Of a stretch of DNA of 64,000 nt, positions 3,201 to 22,921 are shown piece after piece. Within the stretch, counting starts at the first letter, position 1; each line of letters opens with the position of its first letter. The position numbers and the translations under genes are program-made. The notes beneath the pieces were generated by a model. The model was not told the origin of the DNA and searched no databases. It was given only the letters and a program-made list of their open reading frames with translations. Origin of the DNA: an uncultured Bacilli bacterium (GTDB taxonomy: Bacteria; Bacillota_I; Bacilli_A; RF39; UBA660); contig OZ006970.1 of NCBI GenBank assembly GCA_963931065.1, forward strand, positions 293,498 through 357,497. The letters are read 5' to 3'.

Positions 3201-3266
3201 TTAAAAGAATAGTTCTTTTTATGATGTCTCCTAAATGGGGTTCACATCAAAAACTAAGTAGATTTT

Positions 3267-4214
3267 TTAATTTAAACTATTACCTTTAACTGCATCTAAA
3301 TCAACCCTAATAGCTATACCTTTATCAAAGCTCTTAGGAAGACCCTTATTAAGCAAAATACTATCTTTCTGTATTTCATAACTACTATCTATTCCATTTA
3401 ATTCAAGAACACTAGGATCAACGCTTTGTTGATAATCAGTATCTTCACTTGGTCTTAGTAAAAATTCACTATTATGAATATCAACATATTTTAATGAATC
3501 ATTATATCTAGCTAATCCAGTCAAAATATCAATAGTAAAAGATTTACCTCCTACCTCATATGCATCTTTATTATAATCATATAAATATTTATTTTCTGGT
3601 ATAGCAATAGTAACATTAGGCATAATTTGATCTCCTACTGCCTTTTCAATATTTGAAGGAATTAAAACCGGTTCAGCAACTTCCTTATCATAAACACCTT
3701 TTTGAAGGTTACAACTAAAAGCTTCTTTCATTCCAATAGCAAGTAAATCAGCATGATTATTACCTTTATTATAATTACCAATTACTTTATAATCATCACC
3801 TTCATAATTAGTTAATGCTACAAAACACTCTGTACCATCTTTATTTAATTCATTTATATCTCTAACTTCAACATCAAGACCTGTTGCCGCTAAAGTACTC
3901 TCTGCCTGTTCCATTTGTTCACTACTAATACCATCATTAACAAGAACAACATTAAGAGTTGATAAATCTTCTACACTAGTATCAATAGTATATGAATCTT
4001 CAACAGTAGTAGAAACATCCACTGTTTTCTCATCAGATTTATCTAAAAAATTCTTACATCCAACAATACCTAAACCAACTACTCCAGCAGTAAGCGCAGT
4101 AACACTTCCTCTTACTAGCATTCTTTTAATATATAAATTTCTCTTCTTCCTTTTTCTAGCTTCTCTTATCATCTCAGGAGTAACTCTAAAATTATCAATT
4201 CTTTTATCACTCAT
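3267..4214 (-). CDS. Hypothetical membrane-anchored protein: a basic cytoplasmic N-terminus, one TM helix, then an extracytoplasmic domain.
   Basis: 315-aa ORF with a KRKKRN-rich N-terminus followed by a hydrophobic segment (VTALTAGVVGLGIVG). I recognise no family. Confidence 0.45.
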   Translation of the reverse strand: MSDKRIDNFRVTPEMIREARKRKKRNLYIKRMLVRGSVTALTAGVVGLGIVGCKNFLDKSDEKTVDVSTTVEDSYTIDTSVEDLSTLNVVLVNDGISSEQMEQAESTLAATGLDVEVRDINELNKDGTECFVALTNYEGDDYKVIGNYNKGNNHADLLAIGMKEAFSCNLQKGVYDKEVAEPVLIPSNIEKAVGDQIMPNVTIAIPENKYLYDYNKDAYEVGGKSFTIDILTGLARYNDSLKYVDIHNSEFLLRPSEDTDYQQSVDPSVLELNGIDSSYEIQKDSILLNKGLPKSFDKGIAIRVDLDAVKGNSLN

Positions 4215-6072: not shown

Positions 6073-6812
6073 ATATCATCCTCCAAAGTAGTCTTAGCAA
6101 GATAAAGTCCACAGGCTTTCGCAGTCGCCCCATTCTTACCTCTTTCTTTACTATCAAGTATCATCTTAACTTCATAAGGCTCTATTTTACCTGTTCCAAC
6201 TTTAAGTAATGCACCTACCATATTTCTAACCTGATATCTTAAAAAACCACTACCTACAAACTTAATATCTAAAATATCTTTTTTTCTAATAATAGATGCT
6301 TGATATATAGTTCTAACACAATTTTCTTTAACATTATTCTCAGTAACAAATGCTCTAAAGTCATGTTCACCTTCAAAATATTGTATTGCTTTTCTCATTT
6401 TACTAACATTAAGTAAATATCCATGTTGATAAACATAGTTTCTCATTAAAGGATTATATTCTCCCATATTTATATAATAATGATATTCTTTACTTAAAAC
6501 ATGATATCTAGAAAAGTAATCACAAGAAACTTCAACAACTGAGTTTATATGTATCTCATCACTCAAATAACTATTCAATGCTCTTTTTAATTTATAAGGA
6601 GTTATAGAAACATCTAAATCTAAATGTGCAACTTGATCTAATGCGTGTACCCCTTTATCAGTCCTAGATACTGCAACTACATTTACTTTAGTACTATTAT
6701 TAATTTTATAAAGGGCATTCTCTAACTCTTCTTGTATTGTCCTATACCCTTCCTGTTTCTGATATCCTTTAAAATTACTCCCATCATAACTAAATCTAAT
6801 TAAAAATCTCAT
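6069..6812 (-). CDS. truA: tRNA pseudouridine(38-40) synthase.
   Basis: The catalytic motif VSRTDKGVHA and the overall TruA architecture. It overlaps murI by 4 nt. Confidence 0.9.
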   Translation of the reverse strand: MRFLIRFSYDGSNFKGYQKQEGYRTIQEELENALYKINNSTKVNVVAVSRTDKGVHALDQVAHLDLDVSITPYKLKRALNSYLSDEIHINSVVEVSCDYFSRYHVLSKEYHYYINMGEYNPLMRNYVYQHGYLLNVSKMRKAIQYFEGEHDFRAFVTENNVKENCVRTIYQASIIRKKDILDIKFVGSGFLRYQVRNMVGALLKVGTGKIEPYEVKMILDSKERGKNGATAKACGLYLAKTTLEDDI

Positions 6813-16724: not shown

Positions 16725-17447
16725 ATGATATATATGGATAAACACGTTAGAATTATAACTGTATCTGCTCTTTCCTTACTTGGAATTCTTTGTATTTCAT
16801 CAGGAATAATGTATAATTCCTTACAAGAAAATAATGTAGAAGAAAAAGTATTAGTCATAGTAGAACAAAAACAAGTAAGTAAAGAAAATGACATTGATAT
16901 AAAATTAAAAAATTTAACTATCGAAGTTAATACTCCTTTAAGTGTAAAGATAATTGACTATTTAGACAGTGCTGTAAGAGATGAAGTCCTAGCCAATTTA
17001 AAGCTTGATACAAGTGCTGTTAATGTTACTAAACCAGGAACTTATAATTATACAGTTAGTTATAAAAAGAAAACATATCAAGGTATTATTATTGTAAAAG
17101 AAAAAGAAATAGTAAATAATACTTTACAAAGTATAACCCTAAAAACTGTAAATATAAATGTAGGTACTGCCCTACCAACTGATGTTAGTAATTATGTAAT
17201 AGAACCTCTAACAGATGAAGTAAAAACTAATATGTTAATTAATCTTAGTAAAGTTAATGTCAATATAGCAGGTAGTTATCAATATACAATTACTTATAAT
17301 AATAGTATATATACAGGTACAATAGTTGTAACTGAAACACAGCCTACCCTATCTACTAATATAGATGAATCTAATACTGAAACAGAAAAAGAAACTGATA
17401 CAAATACTGAAATTGATACAAATAAAACAACTGCTCAAATTAATTAA
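16725..17447 (+). CDS. Membrane-anchored protein with two internal domain repeats of about 70 aa and a T/E/N-rich tail.
   Basis: An N-terminal TM helix, then the repeated motifs (NVTKPGTYNYTVSYKKKTYQG / NIAGSYQYTITYNNSIYTG). Confidence 0.45.
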   Translation: MIYMDKHVRIITVSALSLLGILCISSGIMYNSLQENNVEEKVLVIVEQKQVSKENDIDIKLKNLTIEVNTPLSVKIIDYLDSAVRDEVLANLKLDTSAVNVTKPGTYNYTVSYKKKTYQGIIIVKEKEIVNNTLQSITLKTVNINVGTALPTDVSNYVIEPLTDEVKTNMLINLSKVNVNIAGSYQYTITYNNSIYTGTIVVTETQPTLSTNIDESNTETEKETDTNTEIDTNKTTAQIN

Positions 17448-17480
17448 CATTAAAATTTCTTAAATTTATATGAATTTTAA

Positions 17481-17515
17481 AAATTGACTTAAAAAAAGAA
17501 GTCAATTTTTTATTT
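17481..17515 (+). terminator. Rho-independent terminator.
   Basis: AATTGACTT-loop-AAGTCAATT followed by TTTTTATTTT. Confidence 0.5.
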
Positions 17516-17648
17516 TCTCTAGAGGAATTTATAAAATTAGAGAGTGTTTATACCTCCAAATACTATTTTTCGTAAATTGCAATCTATTTTAACTTATGTT
17601 AGAGTGTAGGCATCTACGTAGAAATATTAAAAATTATTGGAGGTGTTT

Positions 17649-17714
17649 ATGAAAAAAGAAGGAAATAATAAAAAGACTGAGAAAAAATTTATTAGTTTAT
17701 TAAGTTATGGGTAG
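17649..17714 (+). pseudogene. 5' fragment (19 codons plus an RBS) of an Rpn-family PD-(D/E)XK nuclease (TIGR01784-like) gene, severed by the RIT insertion.
   Basis: A strong RBS (GGAGGTGTTTATG). MKKEGNNKKTEKKFISLLS runs straight into the element's left inverted repeat. Joining it to 21117.. restores a 288-aa Rpn-like ORF. Confidence 0.65.
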
Positions 17715-17793
17715 ATAAATATTATGAGAAGTTAAAAGAAAAACTCCTTATTTTATAAGGAATTAGTCTTTATTTACTTCTCATAATGTTTTT
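17705..17793. repeat. Left terminal inverted repeat of the RIT element. It is 89 bp and internally palindromic (ATTATGAGAAG...CTTCTCATAAT).
   Basis: Exact reverse-complement match to 20995-21083. Confidence 0.85.
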
Positions 17794-17834
17794 TGTATTA
17801 TACTCCTGTATTCATAAATACAAAAAGGAGTGTG

Positions 17835-19061
17835 ATGAAAATGAATACAAAACAATTATTTTTAAGGAAAGGAGATTATTTTAGTTATTTAGAAGAACTT
17901 GGAATGTGTAAAAATACAATATGGGTAAATAAGTATGTAATTAATAATTTTGAAAAATATTGTATGACTAATGACATTAGTACAATAAATAAAGATGTTG
18001 TTAAACAGTTTTATTTAAATAGCCTTGATTATGTTAATAAAACGAAAAATTACCAATTCGTTTTAAAAAGACCAATACTAGCCTTTTTAGATTATTGTAA
18101 TACTGGTTCATTCTTAAAAGAATATTCTAATAAGAAAGTAGAACACATAATTATAAATAATGATTTTAAAAAAATATTCAATGAATATAAGAATAATATT
18201 TTACTTCAATCTGAATTATCTAATAAAAGTGTTAATAGAAAAGTTAGAGTTATAACTAATTTACTAAATAATATTTCTAATATGGGTATAAATAAATTAG
18301 AAAGTTTAAATGAACAAATAATAACTACCTATATAAATAGAAATTTAAATATTTATAGTAAAAGTACTATTAATTGTTATAAAAGTATTATAGTTGAATT
18401 TTTAAGTTATCTTCACGATAATAACTTGATATCATTCTCAAAAAAATTAGTAACTTACAAATCATCTAATTCAAGAGATATTGTTGCCAGTAGTTTTACA
18501 ACAGATGAGGTTAAAATGATTTTAGACTCAATCGACACATCAACTAAGCATGGCAAACATCATTATTTAATTATAGTTTTACTAGCATATTATGGACTAA
18601 GAGTTGGGGACATAATGAAATTACAATTTAAAAATATAAATTTTAATACCAACAAAATATCATTAATACAGAGTAAAACAAAGGTAGAACTTGTTTTACC
18701 TTTAGTTGATGAAGTAAAGTTTGCCTTACTTGATTATATAAAAAATAGTAGACCATCTAATACAAATAACGACTACATTTTACTTACAATACATGCACCA
18801 CATAAGGAGTATACTAACATTGACGCTTTTTATACTATTATTAGCAGAATAATTCTAAACTCTGGTATAAGTTTGGATGATAGAAAAAATGGGAGTCGTG
18901 TATTTAGACACAGTTTGGCTACAAACATGATAAATAAAAATGTAGAATTGTATAAGATAAGTAATGTTTTGGGACATAAAAGTACAAGGACAACAAGTAA
19001 ATATATAAGCAGGGATACAAATCTTCTAAAAGAAATAACTTTGGAGGTTAATTATGAATGA
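17835..19061 (+). CDS. Tyrosine recombinase RitA-like, first gene of the trio.
   Basis: A C-terminal catalytic domain with R...HxxR...Y (FRHSLAT...GHKSTRTTSKY). The start is taken at the ATG after the AAAGGAG RBS. The stop overlaps the ritB start in ATGAATGA. Confidence 0.8.
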   Translation: MKMNTKQLFLRKGDYFSYLEELGMCKNTIWVNKYVINNFEKYCMTNDISTINKDVVKQFYLNSLDYVNKTKNYQFVLKRPILAFLDYCNTGSFLKEYSNKKVEHIIINNDFKKIFNEYKNNILLQSELSNKSVNRKVRVITNLLNNISNMGINKLESLNEQIITTYINRNLNIYSKSTINCYKSIIVEFLSYLHDNNLISFSKKLVTYKSSNSRDIVASSFTTDEVKMILDSIDTSTKHGKHHYLIIVLLAYYGLRVGDIMKLQFKNINFNTNKISLIQSKTKVELVLPLVDEVKFALLDYIKNSRPSNTNNDYILLTIHAPHKEYTNIDAFYTIISRIILNSGISLDDRKNGSRVFRHSLATNMINKNVELYKISNVLGHKSTRTTSKYISRDTNLLKEITLEVNYE

Positions 19062-20013
19062 CAATATATATATTCCAAATTTTAAAAGTATTTTTAAAGA
19101 TGAATTATTTGATTTTATTATGTTTAAAAGAAGTAATGGTTATAAATATGGTAGAAGAAAGTGTTATAATTTTATTAGGCTTGATACTTTTTTTATTCAT
19201 TATAAATTAGATGAGAAAAAAATAACTAATGAATGTATTGATGAGTGGCTTAAACAATTTAATAGTTTATCTATTAATACAAAACAACTTTATTATGGTG
19301 TAATTCATATGTTTACAGAATATTTAGTATGCAGAAATTATACAAATATTACTATTCCAAGTATTAATTATTTCAATGGAAAATCTGGATTCGTTCCTTA
19401 TATTTATACTAAGAAAGAATTAAAAGATATATTTAATGAAAGTAAGAATAATGATACTCTTTATATGACATTACATCTACTTTATCATTGTGGTTTAAGA
19501 ATTAGTGAGGTTGGCAATTTAAAACTTTCTGATTTTAATATTTTTAATAAAACTATTATCATAAGGCATAGCAAAAACGATGTAACAAGATTAATTCCTT
19601 TAACAGATGCCATAACCAGTATGTTGCAAAATTATATTGGTTCAAAAAATCTTAATCAAAATGATTATATTTTTGAATGCAAAAATAAAAGACAAACTTT
19701 TCAACTTAAAACTAGAGACAATTTTCATAAAGTTTTAGAAAAAACTCAAATTAAAAAAAGAGAAAATGATAAGTGGCCTCGTCTTCATGATTTAAGACAT
19801 ACCTTTGCGGTGCATGCTTTAGAACAAATGCAAGACAAAGGATTTGATCTATATACATCTTTACCATCATTATCAATTTATTTAGGACACAAATCAATTG
19901 TTGAAACTGAATATTACTTAAGATTTACTTCTTCATACAGTAATAAAGTTTTAACTTCCAATGAATATATAGATGATTTATACATTGAAAAGGAGACATA
20001 TAAAAATGAATGA
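19054..20013 (+). CDS. Tyrosine recombinase RitB-like, second gene of the trio.
   Basis: LHDLRHTFAVHAL...LGHKSIVETEYY catalytic residues. ATGAATGA overlaps at both ends. Confidence 0.8.
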   Translation: MNDNIYIPNFKSIFKDELFDFIMFKRSNGYKYGRRKCYNFIRLDTFFIHYKLDEKKITNECIDEWLKQFNSLSINTKQLYYGVIHMFTEYLVCRNYTNITIPSINYFNGKSGFVPYIYTKKELKDIFNESKNNDTLYMTLHLLYHCGLRISEVGNLKLSDFNIFNKTIIIRHSKNDVTRLIPLTDAITSMLQNYIGSKNLNQNDYIFECKNKRQTFQLKTRDNFHKVLEKTQIKKRENDKWPRLHDLRHTFAVHALEQMQDKGFDLYTSLPSLSIYLGHKSIVETEYYLRFTSSYSNKVLTSNEYIDDLYIEKETYKNE

Positions 20014-21007
20014 TAATTTAAACTATTATATTTCTATATATTTTAAAGATTATCTTCCAAAAGTTATTGGAGTTTCCAAAAATACATTATTATCTTATAG
20101 AGATACATTCTTAATATTGTTAGAATATTTAGAAAATAAACTAAACAAAAATATAAATAAACTTAAAATAAATGATATAACTAGTAATGAAATTAGAAGT
20201 TTTTTAAATTTTCTAGAAGAAAATAAGCATAATAGTATATCAACTAGAAATCAAAGACTAGCGGCTATTCACTCATTTTATAAATTTCTCAAAACAAAAG
20301 AACTATCTTATTTGGATTTATTCACACAAATATTATCGATTCCATTTAAGAAAGCTCCTAAAAATACTATAACATACTTTTCTAAAGATGAAATAAGTAT
20401 TTTAATAAATTGTCCTAATGCTTTAACTAAAAACGGTTATAGAGATTATGTATTATTATTACTTATGTATGAAACGGCTGCAAGGGTACAAGAGATATGT
20501 GATATTAAAAGACATAGTATTCAGTTTAAAGAAACATATACATATGTAACTATAACTGGCAAAGGTAATAAGACAAGAACTGTTCCAATTAATAGTGATC
20601 TTTCATTAATTTTAAAAGATTATTTTGATACCTTTAAAATATCTAATGATGATTATCTATTTAAAAATAAAAATAATAATAAATTAACTACAAAAGGTAT
20701 AAGTTATATTTTTTCTAAATATGTACATAAATCACAAAATAGTTATCCCGAAAAATTTAAAGAACATTATAGTCCTCATAGTATGCGTCATTCTAAAGCA
20801 ATGCATTTATTAGAATCTGGTGTTAATTTAATATATATTCGTGATTTTTTAGGACATGAATCAGTTATTACCACTGAAATATATGCAAAAGCTAATCCTG
20901 TTGTGAAAGAAAAACAAATTATTGAACATGCATATAATATAACTAATGATTCAAAATATACTGATAATACAAAAGAAGAATTGTTAAATTTCTTAAAAAC
21001 ATTATGA
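20006..21007 (+). CDS. Tyrosine recombinase RitC-like, third gene of the trio.
   Basis: HSMRHSKAMHLL...LGHESVITTEIY. The start is at the MNDNL ATG after an AAGGAGAC RBS. The stop lies inside the right inverted repeat. Confidence 0.8.
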   Translation: MNDNLNYYISIYFKDYLPKVIGVSKNTLLSYRDTFLILLEYLENKLNKNINKLKINDITSNEIRSFLNFLEENKHNSISTRNQRLAAIHSFYKFLKTKELSYLDLFTQILSIPFKKAPKNTITYFSKDEISILINCPNALTKNGYRDYVLLLLMYETAARVQEICDIKRHSIQFKETYTYVTITGKGNKTRTVPINSDLSLILKDYFDTFKISNDDYLFKNKNNNKLTTKGISYIFSKYVHKSQNSYPEKFKEHYSPHSMRHSKAMHLLESGVNLIYIRDFLGHESVITTEIYAKANPVVKEKQIIEHAYNITNDSKYTDNTKEELLNFLKTL

Positions 21008-21083
21008 GAAGTAAATAAAGACTAATTCCTTATAAAATAAGGAGTTTTTCTTTTAACTTCTCATAATATTTATCTACCCATAA
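20995..21083. repeat. Right terminal inverted repeat of the RIT element, followed by a 27-bp tail (21084-21110) that holds a third palindromic pair of the ATTATGAGAA motif.
   Basis: Exact reverse complement of 17705-17793. Confidence 0.85.
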
Positions 21084-21116
21084 GATAAATTATGAGAATC
21101 TTCTCATAATTTAAGT

Positions 21117-21926
21117 GATACTACATTTAAACATTTATTTAAAATAGAGGAATATAAAGAGTTTTTTAATACTATTATTAAATCTATTATAGGTATAGAT
21201 ATTTATGATTTTAAGTTATATGATGCTGAGTTAAATAGTGGTAATAAAAAACGTGATTATCGTCTAGATATATTACTAGTGAGTGATTTAGTTGATATAG
21301 TTATATCAATAGAGATGAATCAGTTTCCTAGTGAAGAGACAAAATATAAAAATAGATTATATGTATATGCCTTACTTGCTAAAAGTCTAAATAGTGGAGA
21401 AGATATAAAAAAGAAAAAAGTTATCCAAATAAACTTTAATAACGAAAAGAATCCTTATATTAGTAAAGCATCATATTCAGTTATGGATGTAAATACTCAT
21501 AAAGAAATAAAGGATTTTAAAATACATGAAGTGTATCTTGAAAATTACAATGGAATAAGATATAATAAAGACAATAAAGAAGAAGCATATTTATCTTTAT
21601 TTACTGCTAACTCTTATGAAGAATTAAGAGAAATAGCAGGAGATGATAAGGAGGCATTAAAGATTGTGGATGAATTAGAAAGACTAGGACTTGATGAGAA
21701 GTTTGGCATTGTTTATGATAATGAAGTAATGCAGAAAAAAATGCTTAATACAGCACGTAATTGGGGATATGATGATGGATATGATAATGGATATGATGTT
21801 GGTAAGGAAGAAGGAAAAAAATTAATTGCAAAAAATCTTCTTAAAGATGGTATATCTATAGAAGTAGTATCTAAAAATATGGAATTAAGTATTGAAGAAT
21901 TAGAAGAGTTAAATAAAGAAGCTTAA
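21117..21926 (+). CDS. 3' portion (269 codons) of the interrupted Rpn-family PD-(D/E)XK nuclease gene (YhgA/TIGR01784-like putative transposase).
   Basis: The frame is open from 21096 with no ATG; the ORF track begins at a GTG at 21279. It has DTTFKHLF, RLDILL, IEMNQ (PD-(D/E)XK-like) motifs and the family-typical C-terminus IAKNLLKDGISIEVVSKNMELSIEELEEL. Confidence 0.65.
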   Translation, partial: DTTFKHLFKIEEYKEFFNTIIKSIIGIDIYDFKLYDAELNSGNKKRDYRLDILLVSDLVDIVISIEMNQFPSEETKYKNRLYVYALLAKSLNSGEDIKKKKVIQINFNNEKNPYISKASYSVMDVNTHKEIKDFKIHEVYLENYNGIRYNKDNKEEAYLSLFTANSYEELREIAGDDKEALKIVDELERLGLDEKFGIVYDNEVMQKKMLNTARNWGYDDGYDNGYDVGKEEGKKLIAKNLLKDGISIEVVSKNMELSIEELEELNKEA

Positions 21927-21976
21927 ACGCTTCTTTATTTATTGTATAATTTGAATATATCTAACTAATTAATCTC

Positions 21977-22921
21977 TTATAACATATTTTTCTTTTTTAA
22001 AATAAGGGCAACTATTAATGATAATAACAATGATAATAAAAGTAACAAAACAAAAGCGAAAGGATTATCTGCAAACTTACCAAAAGTAACATTCATTCCC
22101 ATAAAAGATGCTACCATCGTAGGAATAGAAAATACAATCGTAATACCTGCTAAGAATTTCATAATAGTATTAAGATTATTAGAAATAATAGTTGCAACAG
22201 TATCAGTAGTACTAGATAAAATACCTCTATATAAATCAGCCATTTCAATCGCCTGATTATTTTCAATAATAGCATCTTCAAGTAAATCTTCATCTTCTTC
22301 ATATAACTCTATTACATTACCTTTTAATATCTTATCAAGTACAACTCCATTAGATTTTAAAGCTGTAATAATATAAGTCAAACTATTTTCAATAGAAAGT
22401 AAATTTAATAATTCTTGATTTTTAGTAGCATTTAAAATATTAGATTCTGCTATCTCTATTTTATTATCTATTTCTCTTAACATCTTTAAATAAAGTAAAG
22501 CAAGTTTATAAATCATTTGAATAATAAATCTACTTTTCTTATAAGTATAAAACTCTTTAACCTTTCCTTTAGTAAATTCATCAATAATACTATATTTTTG
22601 TAAGCATACTGTTACAATATAATCATTTCTAACAACTAAAATACCTATAGGTAGTGTTGTAATAGTCTTAATATTATTCTTAGTTTCATAAACAGGTACA
22701 TCTAAAAGAAGCATCTTAACCCCATCTTCCTCATCAATACGAGGTTTCTCATCATCATCAATTACACTCATAATAAAGTTTTTCTTAATACCAAGAGCAT
22801 TAACAACTTCATCTATTTCTATTTCCGTAGGATTAACTAAATTAACCCAACTACCTACCTCATATGTATCAATTCTACTAAACTCTCCACTAGTAACATC
22901 AGTATTATATATTTTTAACAT
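21977..22921 (-). CDS. corA: Magnesium/cobalt transporter CorA.
   Basis: Two C-terminal TM helices with the GMN signature (FMGMNV). Confidence 0.85.
   Translation of the reverse strand: MLKIYNTDVTSGEFSRIDTYEVGSWVNLVNPTEIEIDEVVNALGIKKNFIMSVIDDDEKPRIDEEDGVKMLLLDVPVYETKNNIKTITTLPIGILVVRNDYIVTVCLQKYSIIDEFTKGKVKEFYTYKKSRFIIQMIYKLALLYLKMLREIDNKIEIAESNILNATKNQELLNLLSIENSLTYIITALKSNGVVLDKILKGNVIELYEEDEDLLEDAIIENNQAIEMADLYRGILSSTTDTVATIISNNLNTIMKFLAGITIVFSIPTMVASFMGMNVTFGKFADNPFAFVLLLLLSLLLSLIVALILKKKNML

Follow-up and report, generated by a model that had tools for sequence, protein, structure and literature searches.

The window analysed here, a 64,000-nucleotide stretch from the 1.52-Mb genome (26% GC; one contig of 1,519,355 bp) of an uncultured Bacilli bacterium, harbours at positions 17705–21115 a recombinase-in-trio (RIT) element of 3411 bp, whose gene content consists only of ritA, ritB and ritC and which splits a gene of the Rpn (PD-(D/E)XK) family between codons 19 and 20. 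The element follows the order core, IRL, ritABC, IRR, core′, palindrome P and core. The features along the locus are:

17649–17704, plus strand: rpn 5′ fragment, with the start codon, 18 codons and the first two bases of Ser19; joined to 21116 onward in strain L025
17699–17704, plus strand: left junction core ATTAAG, 6 bp separating the left arm of the target from the terminal motif of IRL
17705–17793, plus strand: inverted repeat IRL, 89 bp, a perfect match to 20995–21083
17705–17714, 17722–17731 and 17777–17786, plus strand: motif copies of IRL (TTATGGGTAG, TTATGAGAAG and CTTCTCATAA, respectively)
17841–19061, plus strand: ritA, 406 aa, matching the first gene of the pHG1 trio best (E 8e-36)
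19054–20013, plus strand: ritB, 319 aa, matching the second gene of the pHG1 trio best (E 4e-30)
20006–21007, plus strand: ritC, 333 aa, matching the third gene of the pHG1 trio best (E 1e-71)
20995–21083, minus strand: inverted repeat IRR, 89 bp, with motif copies starting at 21002, 21057 and 21074
21084–21089, plus strand: internal core GATAAA, flanked by the IRR terminus CTACCCATAA and the first palindrome arm
21090–21109, no strand: palindrome P, two abutted motif copies, TTATGAGAAT followed by CTTCTCATAA
21110–21115, plus strand: right junction core TTTAAG, whose final five bases repeat 17700–17704
21116–21926, plus strand: rpn body, with the last base of Ser19, codons 20–288 and the stop codon

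All three co-oriented ORFs contain a Phage_integrase domain (PF00589; E 9e-26, 2e-24 (1.9e-24) and 2e-34), and the catalytic Arg...His-x-x-Arg...His...Tyr set can be read in each protein from the sequences and the RitA alignment: RVFRH ... LGH ... Y in RitA, HDLRH ... LGH ... Y in RitB and HSMRH ... LGH ... Y in RitC. The first His of box II in RitA is Arg in the clade of the window element and His in pHG1 and L014. The identification as a RIT, already made in the first-pass annotation, is borne out by positional orthology: in BLASTP comparisons with the trio of Cupriavidus necator pHG1, each protein favours its positional equivalent, off-diagonal E-values being around 1e-10 or worse (best, 4e-11). 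The trios of Ruminococcus albus and Lachnospiraceae give the same one-to-one pattern, and the alignment shows end-to-end collinearity of RitA with six other RitA proteins. The element is a newly found representative of the already known RIT type. The originally given lengths of 319 and 333 aa stand, as does the identical start/stop overlap at both junctions of the trio, the 8-bp ATGAATGA (19054–19061 and 20006–20013); the 409 aa given for RitA reflect one of three possible starts (GTG 17832, 409 aa; ATG 17835, 408 aa; ATG 17841, 406 aa), and the 406-aa version of the public gene calls is used here. Short overlaps (4–8 bp, ATGA type) between the genes are a described RIT feature (PMC3414803, PMC2864759), as are two consecutive core-binding (SAM-like) domains in RitA and an extra C-terminal helix in RitC (PMC8138268). 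In the RitA of the window, Pfam finds one SAM-like domain (117–195), preceded by an N-terminal 116-aa extension that is collinear with pHG1 RitA and that aligns in register, if weakly, with the SAM-like block in a profile comparison (E 4e-4, probability 35%); in RitC, ~39 residues follow the catalytic Tyr and are conserved with L014 RitC, which would agree with such a helix. The ritC stop codon lies inside IRR.

The two 89-nt inverted repeats are, as first claimed, exact reverse complements by sequence comparison (a repeat finder lengthened the match to 94 nt at 98%), and each is in itself a strong internal palindrome or hairpin (−16.1 kcal/mol, z = −5.0). The element is asymmetric, the 32 bp past IRR (21084–21115) being part of it. 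Its 10-bp motif, TTATNNGNAG, is present in eight copies at fixed spacings; four lineages (RitB identity 46–100%) share these spacings (17/55 and 55/17/16/10) exactly, although the intervening DNA differs. Within the element, three inverted pairs account for six occurrences of ATTATGAGAA; a further one at 33685 brings the window total to seven, versus 0.87 expected (at least seven in 0 of 100 shuffles). Six copies in three palindromic pairs had been noted before; the third pair, then taken for just another binding site, is instead a conserved one-sided palindrome that gives the element its asymmetry. This palindrome, P, is a perfect 10+10 palindrome save one base, is missing from the empty-site allele of L025, and has arms that co-vary in L039 and L043. 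The motif copies frame dif-like 10-6-10 sites, of which CTACCCATAA, GATAAA and the first P arm form a complete one, retained inside the integrated element. The likeness of the target arms to the motif is weak.

The split rpn gene has a ribosome-binding site, GGAGG, at 17640–17644. Deletion of 17706–21116 restores a 288-codon ORF with the junction rebuilt as FISLLS/DTTFKH; this reconstruction, set beforehand as a test, is upheld by 328 homologs of the restored ORF, SLLSD being found at the junction in 119 of the 120 full-length homologs listed. The assignment to the Rpn family is likewise supported. The rebuilt window ORF matches TIGR01784 end to end (profile 3–273 of 273), at 37.5 bits below the cutoff of 52.1, and a Pfam search with it gave no match; two paralogs exceed the cutoff (P0059, 56.9 bits; P0004, 52.5 bits), and P0059 passes PF12784 as well (35.0 vs 27.4). 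These Bacilli proteins are distant from E. coli Rpn. Kingston et al. (2017) are also said to have treated the RpnL/RpnS (YhgA-like) genes. Rpn genes code for PD-(D/E)XK nucleases that belong to the antiphage toxin-antitoxin family RpnL/RpnS, in which variable four-amino-acid repeats precede a C-terminal helix-turn-helix part that can also be made separately, as RpnS (Zhong et al. 2023, PMC10400941). The target gene shares with this family the N-terminal nuclease part, the C-terminal helix-turn-helix part, hypervariable four-amino-acid repeats beginning 8–12 residues downstream of an internal Met, and the occurrence of many paralogs per genome together with stand-alone small copies. Its body contains a dodecamer repeat (21765–21800; GYDD GYDN GYDV) and the RpnS-like part; the repeat units read GYDD/GYDN/GYDV/GKEE/GKAE/GLEE, and their number varies among alleles. 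The only part of the family matched by a separate minus-strand ORF of 64 aa at 32311–32505, formerly described as a truncated Rpn-like tail, is the RpnS-like C-terminus (E 2e-6); this ORF may represent a small stand-alone gene and not a truncated remnant.

The near-identical strain L025 has a natural empty site, which confirms the precise splitting of the gene and in which TTAAGT, whose count in a related strain had been singled out for checking, occurs once. The flanks match those of the window at 99.8% over 2106 nt (left) and 99.3% over 702 nt (right), contiguous and ungapped, and abut at L025 positions 2141 and 2142. The search for further copies, likewise suggested earlier, revealed five in total in the same genome, each in a different rpn paralog at the same codon; the rebuilt ORFs of the five split paralogs comprise 284–300 aa each. 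Over the shared IRL-to-IRR stretch of 3379 bp, 0 mismatches separate four of the copies, and a 1438-bp IS insertion is the only difference of the fifth. Because the copies are identical over this length and the site is occupied or empty depending on the strain, the insertion appears recent and the element is probably active, in line with the initial proposal. The evidence for mobility is comparative throughout, with neither a circular junction nor an excision event observed, and the identical copies point to a gain in copy number, which simple cut-and-paste leaves unexplained.

Orientation and junction sequence go together in these copies: where rit is co-directional with the gene (the window and L001), TTAAG stands at both junctions, and where it is opposed (L002, L003 and L004), TTATC does; P lies on the side of the rpn body in 5/5. 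This rule is based on the five copies. All six distinct uninterrupted alleles with readable DNA, from five loci, carry TTA AGT, TTA TCN was found only at occupied sites, and AGT also stands at the empty loci syntenic to the L003 and L004 copies (L051 and L050; ~90% identical). With AGT in each of these readable alleles, a matching TTATC core in the target is hypothetical; heterologous cores may be tolerated or rewritten. L011, from a MAG of another species, has a TTATC-type site and yet a co-directional rit, and in L010 P is flanked by TC-type cores on either side; fitting these two to the model set out below would take additional inversion or conversion events.

The segment 17705–21115 is, with good confidence, an active or very recently active RIT that entered the 5′ end of rpn through site-specific recombination by tyrosine recombinases. 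It would move in the following manner: Recombination between the two outer cores would restore rpn precisely and release a circle, in which IRR, GATAAA, P, TTTAAG and IRL are contiguous. The circle would bear two inverted 10-6-10 crossover sites, one either side of P. Integration through the TTTAAG site would place rit co-directional with rpn, as in the window and L001, and integration through the GATAAA site would place it in the opposite direction, as in L002, L003 and L004. By either route, P would adjoin the gene body and the core used would be present at both junctions. The motif copies within the inverted repeats would serve as accessory binding sites that assemble the three recombinases, and the target is probably recognised via the DNA encoding the conserved D-x-x-F-K motif (T GAT NNN NNN TTY AAR). 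Insertion would inactivate the long nuclease form and spare the internal RpnS-type reading frame.

The alternative that survives best, although improbable, concerns the intermediate: the long palindromic ends could fold back, and the element could move in a hairpin-ended or single-stranded form and not as a double-stranded circle. Nielsen et al. suggested a fold-back intermediate for Sphingobium RITs, which were enriched in exonuclease-resistant DNA and for which the circle junction was not mappable (PMC5737581). This observation, the hairpin potential of the inverted repeats, the near-perfect palindrome P and the five identical copies, which imply copying, all fit such an intermediate; however, 10-6-10 sites and a precisely restored target are as expected from ordinary site-specific recombination between double strands, and unmapped circle junctions are weak evidence when reads are short and repeats are longer than the k-mer.

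A second point is the nature of the sequence shared by the two junctions. TTAAGT is indeed present at 17700–17705 and at 21111–21116, as originally reported, the repeat common to both junctions being the 5-bp TTAAG (17700–17704 and 21111–21115); its original reading as a target-site duplication has fared less well. Since it is flanked by 10-bp recombinase-type arms and since other RITs carry the core or its reverse complement internally, TTAAG(T) is best read as a crossover core common to element and target. In the RITs of pHG1, Lachnospiraceae (L014) and R. albus (pRUMAL02), a short palindrome abuts one inverted repeat, so that the one-sided palindrome is found there too, and a 6-bp repeat lies at both outer borders (TAGCGC, CATAAG and GAGATT). 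In pHG1 and R. albus, the 6-mer that separates P from the adjacent inverted repeat is identical to the outer repeat read in reverse complement; L014 and L039 agree with it in this sense at 5/6 positions, and in L034 the reverse complement is exact or near. Cut-and-paste or replicative transposition, in which repair of staggered target cuts duplicates 5–6 bp, would account for a 5-bp sequence found once in the empty and twice in the occupied site and differing among copies (TTAAG or TTATC). The element's only genes encode tyrosine recombinases, though, and these act by conservative strand exchange, which leaves no gaps to fill. The repeat also occupies precisely the 6 bp that separate two inverted 10-bp arms, as a crossover site would, only two core sequences are seen among five insertions, and the internal 6-mers matching the outer repeat in other elements are unexpected for arbitrary duplicated target DNA. 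A true duplication ranks just below the fold-back route, at a similarly low probability.

Insertion at this rpn codon is also seen in diverged lineages. Two RIT lineages with RitB only 48–51% identical likewise enter the Rpn D-x-x-F-K motif 1 nt ahead of its Asp codon; the rebuilt targets of L035 and L039 pass PF12784 (that of L039 passes TIGR01784 too), and in both the cut lies, as in the window, 1 nt before the Asp codon aligned to profile position 3–4. Another related lineage (L043) is inserted in a non-rpn gene, and published RIT insertions include radC, interrupted in two species, and an IS66 tnpA (PMC2864759). Insertion of such divergent lineages at the same codon of rpn genes with little or no detectable similarity to that of the window speaks against a single entry into one paralog followed by spread through homologous recombination or gene conversion, without the element's own recombinases. 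The rpn paralogs are ~80–90% identical around the site, and recombination between two RIT copies was seen in one assembly (L006), both of which would favour such spread. Paralog-specific differences lie within 1–6 bp of both junctions (for example, left TTA/CTT, right GAT/GAC), however, so every conversion tract would need to end exactly at the element borders; moreover, co-converted flanking tracts identical between copies were not seen, and conversion cannot yield two orientations with P always on the body side. Spread by conversion is accordingly very unlikely. Least probable of all is a resident invertible or excisable switch regulating rpn by phase variation, which would fit perfect inverted repeats around recombinase genes, a reversed inner segment at the L001 locus in the short-read contig L008 and the prospect of precise excision switching the toxin gene back on. 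It would not fit identical copies in five unrelated places on the chromosome, a gene split by 3.4 kb that contain stop codons in either orientation, or the related lineage in a non-rpn gene, and the orientation seen in L008 is unreliable (assembly k = 87, shorter than the 89-bp repeat).

The RIT elements of Cupriavidus metallidurans CH34 and C. necator pHG1 have reportedly been treated by Van Houdt et al. (2009, 2012) and Ricker et al. (2013). The window element resembles them in its three adjacent tyrosine recombinase genes, which follow the order RitA-RitB-RitC and overlap briefly (ATGA type), in the inverted repeats on either side, in the presence of several identical copies per genome and in insertion inside specific genes; with the pHG1 copy it also shares the one-sided palindrome and the 6-bp border repeat, found in the present analysis. 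It differs in its host, an uncultured 26% GC, 1.5-Mb Bacilli, in its target, the rpn gene family, in a protein identity to the pHG1 recombinases of only 24–38%, and in the cores around the palindrome, which differ by two bases here and are exact reverse complements in pHG1. A Tn554-like transposon was considered and rejected: such elements combine a long tyrosine recombinase (~630 aa) and a second one with TnpC and lack terminal inverted repeats, whereas here there are three recombinases of 319–406 aa, no fourth ORF and 89-bp inverted repeats. Small transposons with two or three tyrosine recombinases share marked target-site specificity and a 6-bp junction core with the window element and have circular forms; the inverted repeats of the RIT archetype are quoted at 34 bp, versus 89 bp of perfect match here (PMC10214605). 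Those small transposons have no long terminal inverted repeats, depend on an additional protein that is not a recombinase (TnpC, Srap or GinD) and is absent here, and carry a 6-bp donor-site footprint, whereas the window element has the same core at both junctions.

The proposed RIT crossover sites have the layout of Xer/dif sites, with inverted arms of ~10–11 bp around a 6-bp centre, and even have CATAA-N6-TTATG in common with E. coli dif. XerC and XerD models are the top scores of RitC, at 176 and 170 bits and under both cutoffs. In contrast to integrative elements that exploit dif, the RIT encodes its own recombinases, its target is a protein-coding motif and not the chromosome dimer-resolution site, and it bears six further motif copies.

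A broader reading is possible but doubtful as a whole: this clade may be a homing element specialised on RpnL DNA encoding the conserved N-terminal D-x-x-F-K motif, whose circle carries two alternative 6-bp cores flanking the palindrome and enters in either orientation, whose recombinases split the work between their own motif and unrelated target arms, and which acts as a precise, reversible off/on switch of the toxin that leaves the internal RpnS antitoxin frame intact; all RITs would have in the one-sided palindrome their general, so far unrecognised recombination site. To our knowledge, RIT movement has never been reproduced in the laboratory, which is what makes this element informative: its related copies and the matching empty site give an unusually clear view of where a poorly understood element cuts and joins DNA.

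The element that interrupts the Rpn-family PD-(D/E)XK (rpn) gene is a genuine and recently mobile recombinase-in-trio (RIT) element, and the account of it in the first-pass annotation is essentially right. RIT elements have been known since 2009 and are widespread across bacteria; the window copy adds a further member to this known kind of element. Its parts are arranged as follows:

17705-21115: RIT element with the recombinase genes ritA, ritB and ritC
17705-17793: left inverted repeat (IRL)
20995-21083: right inverted repeat (IRR)
21084-21089: internal 6-bp core, GATAAA
21090-21109: 20-bp palindrome (P)

IRL and IRR are, as claimed, exact reverse complements over 89 nt; with a repeat finder they reach 94 nt at 98% identity, and each contains a strong internal palindrome (z = -5.0). 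Between them lie the three overlapping tyrosine recombinase genes that had been described, co-oriented ORFs with a Phage_integrase domain in each (E 9e-26, 2e-24 and 2e-34), and both gene junctions indeed use one shared overlap, the octamer ATGAATGA (19054-19061 and 20006-20013). The length of ritA is less firm than the reported 409 aa: GTG 17832, ATG 17835 and ATG 17841 are all candidate starts, the last of which (406 aa) appears in public gene calls. A promoter and terminator scan of 17400-22100 returned 42 promoter-like sites versus 43.8 expected and no terminators, the scan being uninformative in this DNA of 26% GC.

The three proteins match their positional counterparts in the trio of Cupriavidus necator pHG1, a reference RIT host (PMC3414803), with E-values of 8e-36, 4e-30 and 1e-71 (best off-diagonal match, 4e-11), and the same position-by-position pattern is seen with the trios of Ruminococcus albus pRUMAL02 and a Lachnospiraceae MAG. 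RitA is collinear end to end with six other RitA proteins, including its 116-aa N-terminal extension. Two core-binding domains are a feature of RitA (PMC8138268); in the window protein the second is at most tentative, profile comparison of the extension with the SAM-like core-binding block giving an in-register alignment of weak signal (E 4e-4). The catalytic residues are as expected in RitA, RitB and RitC, with the reservation that box II of RitA in the window clade has Arg in place of its first His.

Removal of 17706-21116 restores the predicted uninterrupted ORF of 288 codons. The rebuilt protein has 328 homologs, mostly of 275-299 aa and with a best identity of 87%; of the 120 homologs listed out of the 328, 119 read SLLS|D across the junction and continue with TTFKH or something very similar. 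The empty site was also found: in three metagenome contigs (L025-L027), this locus lacks the element. The left and right flanks of L025 match the window at 99.8% over 2106 nt and at 99.3% over 702 nt, respectively, and these matches abut, ungapped, at L025 2141|2142; the inserted DNA therefore amounts to 3411 bp. The L025 site reads ...AGT TTA TTA AGT GAT ACT..., with TTAAGT occurring once. The insertion is polymorphic among strains with flanks that are more than 99% identical. A further candidate pair, the occupied locus L002 and the empty locus L028, was rejected because the syntenic genes are different paralogs. Searched against Pfam, the rebuilt ORF gave no match at E up to 1, and the family assignment of the split gene is therefore taken from TIGR01784 and from its paralogs, which pass Rpn models. 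No further Rpn paralogs were found in the window by tblastn at E 1e-3. The 240-aa ORF directly upstream of rpn contains two 85-nt segments, 73% identical and 234 nt apart (17019-17337); part of the encoded protein is thereby duplicated internally.

Further copies of the element do exist: a single contig of 1,519,355 bp holds five genes for exactly this RitB, one of the copies (L005) being the window locus. Four of the five are 100% identical from IRL to IRR over 3379 bp; the fifth (L002) is otherwise identical and harbors a 1438-bp ISL3-family IS inside its IRL (L002 3266-4703), with the 8-bp duplication TATTTTAT on both sides. The five copies reside in five different Rpn paralogs, all split between the same two codons, and the rebuilt ORFs (284-300 aa) read (F/T)LLSDTTFK across the junction. 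An origin of the copies by duplication or as conversion tracts was dismissed, as the flanks diverge only a few bases out from either junction; because the paralogs also differ, the five insertions are independent.

Of the window lineage, the scan of GTDB genomes yielded no more than two contigs, both short and repeat-collapsed. In another assembly (contig L006; 1,289,323 bp, ~230 kb shorter), the L003 copy's left flank runs into the right flank that belongs to L002, which fits either a deletion by recombination between RIT copies in direct orientation, 228 kb from each other, or a collapse during assembly. As evidence for an in-situ inversion, contig L008 was discarded: the assembly k of 87 is smaller than the 89-bp repeat, and the left flank is apparently chimeric via an ISL3 copy. 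Mobile elements cluster at the L004 locus, where genes for an IS605-type OrfB (TnpB-like) and for a reverse transcriptase are located just beyond the RIT copy (L004 9901-12838).

The 32 bp that follow IRR (21084-21115), GATAAA - TTATGAGAAT|CTTCTCATAA - TTTAAG, have no counterpart in the empty site. The palindrome P contained in them is one-sided and lies on the rpn gene-body side in all five copies. The six motif copies in three inverted pairs noted earlier were borne out, ATTATGAGAA occurring six times inside the element; its total of seven in the window, versus 0.87 expected, was reached by 0 of 100 shuffles. The seventh copy (33685-33694) is isolated inside a 612-aa ORF with no partner motif near, which fits chance at 0.87 expected per window. 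The 10-bp motif TTATNNGNAG is present in eight copies per element, and the IR termini TTATGGGTAG represent a degenerate motif copy. The spacing of the motifs is the same in three diverged RIT lineages:

Motif spacing in the window element and in diverged RIT lineages (RitB identity to the window copy; motif spacings)
Window: 100%; 17, 55 and 55, 17, 16, 10
L039: 51%; identical
L035: 48%; identical
L043: 46%; identical

The 45 bp separating the inner motif pair show no sequence conservation across lineages; the arms of P co-change (TTATGTGAAG/CTTCACATAA in L039, TTATCAGAAG/CTTCTGATAA in L043). Judged by these sequence comparisons, the motif sites look functional. Each core is thus a 6-bp gap between inverted 10-bp arms, at the sequence level the layout of a tyrosine-recombinase crossover site.

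This layout bears on the apparent 6-bp target duplication of the first-pass annotation. TTAAGT does occur only once in the empty site, as such a duplication would have it; the border repeat is nevertheless read here as a crossover core, because an arbitrary, repair-generated duplication would not be mirrored inside the element. The mirrored 6-mer is found in other RITs as well:

Palindromes and 6-mers in other RITs (short palindrome abutting one IR; 6-mer at both outer borders; internal 6-mer against the reverse complement of the border 6-mer)
C. necator pHG1: 3264-3295; TAGCGC; exact
Lachnospiraceae MAG (L014): 1134-1165; CATAAG; 5/6
R. albus pRUMAL02: 6687-6718; GAGATT; exact
L039: present; TAATGT; 5/6

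The site architecture with its one-sided palindrome is general among these elements, the window element sharing it with the archetypal proteobacterial RIT of pHG1. For the RITs of Sphingobium, Nielsen et al. noted palindromic ends only, and circles could not be mapped (PMC5737581).

The element may move as a circular form with the junction IRR-GATAAA-P-TTTAAG-IRL, in which crossover would be possible at either 6-bp core. In rit orientation, TTAAG precedes IRL and GATAA follows IRR in all five copies. Where rit is parallel to the gene (window and L001), TTAAG is found at both junctions; where it is antiparallel (L002, L003 and L004), both junctions carry TTATC, the reverse complement of GATAA. 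This pattern of orientations and cores is as expected from a circle crossing over at either core. Neither a circle nor an excision event was seen directly, and the P-to-IRL junction pattern had 0 matches in a scan of JGI metagenomes; data with this organism are confined to ENA, Logan and NCBI.

The data do not establish a strict match between the core and the Ser codon of the target: all six distinct readable uninterrupted alleles, from five loci, have TTA AGT, and TTA TCN (N = T, A, G or A) is confined to occupied sites. AGT is also what the empty loci syntenic to the L003 and L004 copies carry, in lineages that are ~90% identical. Starting from one TC core, conservative recombination cannot yield two. 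Possibly, native TCN alleles exist and are unsampled, which the variable third base favors; alternatively, a mismatched core may be tolerated and rewritten by the element. Two further copies fit the circle model only if additional inversions or conversions took place. In L011, the site is of TC type and rit is parallel to the gene. In L010 (860-930, 4290-4330), a 5' rpn fragment lies at the IRR end, the P-side flank is an unrelated 120-aa ORF, and the two P-adjacent cores are of TC type; copies may have rearranged with each other here, or the target may be a secondary one. In L012 (1-30, 3360-3387; species-representative MAG BRZ_LG__bin9), RitB is 99% identical, the IR termini are TTATAGGTAG and GC TAAA follows the IRR side; the core dinucleotide therefore varies between lineages.

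The elements L035 and L039 each split a PD-(D/E)XK gene as well. Both rebuilt ORFs pass PF12784 (30.6 and 29.4 bits versus a cutoff of 27.4), that of L039 also TIGR01784 (55.8 versus 52.1). Their cores stop 1 nt ahead of the GAT codon of D-x-x-F-K, located at profile position 3-4 as in the window. The cores are not shared between lineages (TAGGAT, TAATGT, TTTAAG); the target feature in common is T GAT NNN NNN TTY AAR. In the fourth lineage (L043, 3138-7893; 46% RitB identity, perfect 86-bp inverted repeats), an AlbA_2/HATPase_c_4 gene is split within the motif NAVTH|RSYY, with the same layout, core-IR...IR-core-palindrome-core.

In the split rpn gene, four-aa repeats begin 8-12 residues past an internal Met, ahead of a helix-turn-helix tail. 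Internal-Met repeats and a helix-turn-helix tail are hallmarks of RpnL/RpnS toxin-antitoxin antiphage genes (PMC10400941). The dodecamer repeat at 21765-21800 encodes GYDD GYDN GYDV, and in alleles of the locus from other samples, the number of repeats and the entire C-terminal tail are different (P0001, 299 aa; P0002, 294 aa; here, 288 aa); the variable region corresponds to the hypervariable one reported for RpnS. An insertion at codon 19 is expected to destroy the long nuclease form while sparing the putative internal RpnS frame (antitoxin). The proposed truncated Rpn-like tail at 32311-32505 holds as far as the resemblance goes: this 64-aa minus-strand ORF matches the C-terminal, RpnS-like part only (32% identity to residues 214-284 of the Rpn homolog P0012, E 2e-6, a family link by direct pairwise comparison only). 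It may be an independent small gene of the antitoxin type and not a truncated remnant.

The locus adds a base-precise occupied/empty pair from near-identical strains, a set of five identical copies placed equivalently within one genome, a target conserved across diverged lineages, and an eight-motif, fixed-spacing architecture with a one-sided palindrome. Combined, these data turn the questions of how RITs move and why they have three recombinases into directly testable predictions, providing a concrete model for a class of elements whose movement no laboratory has ever reproduced (PMC10214605). The targeting of an antiphage toxin gene family is of interest for bacterial immunity.
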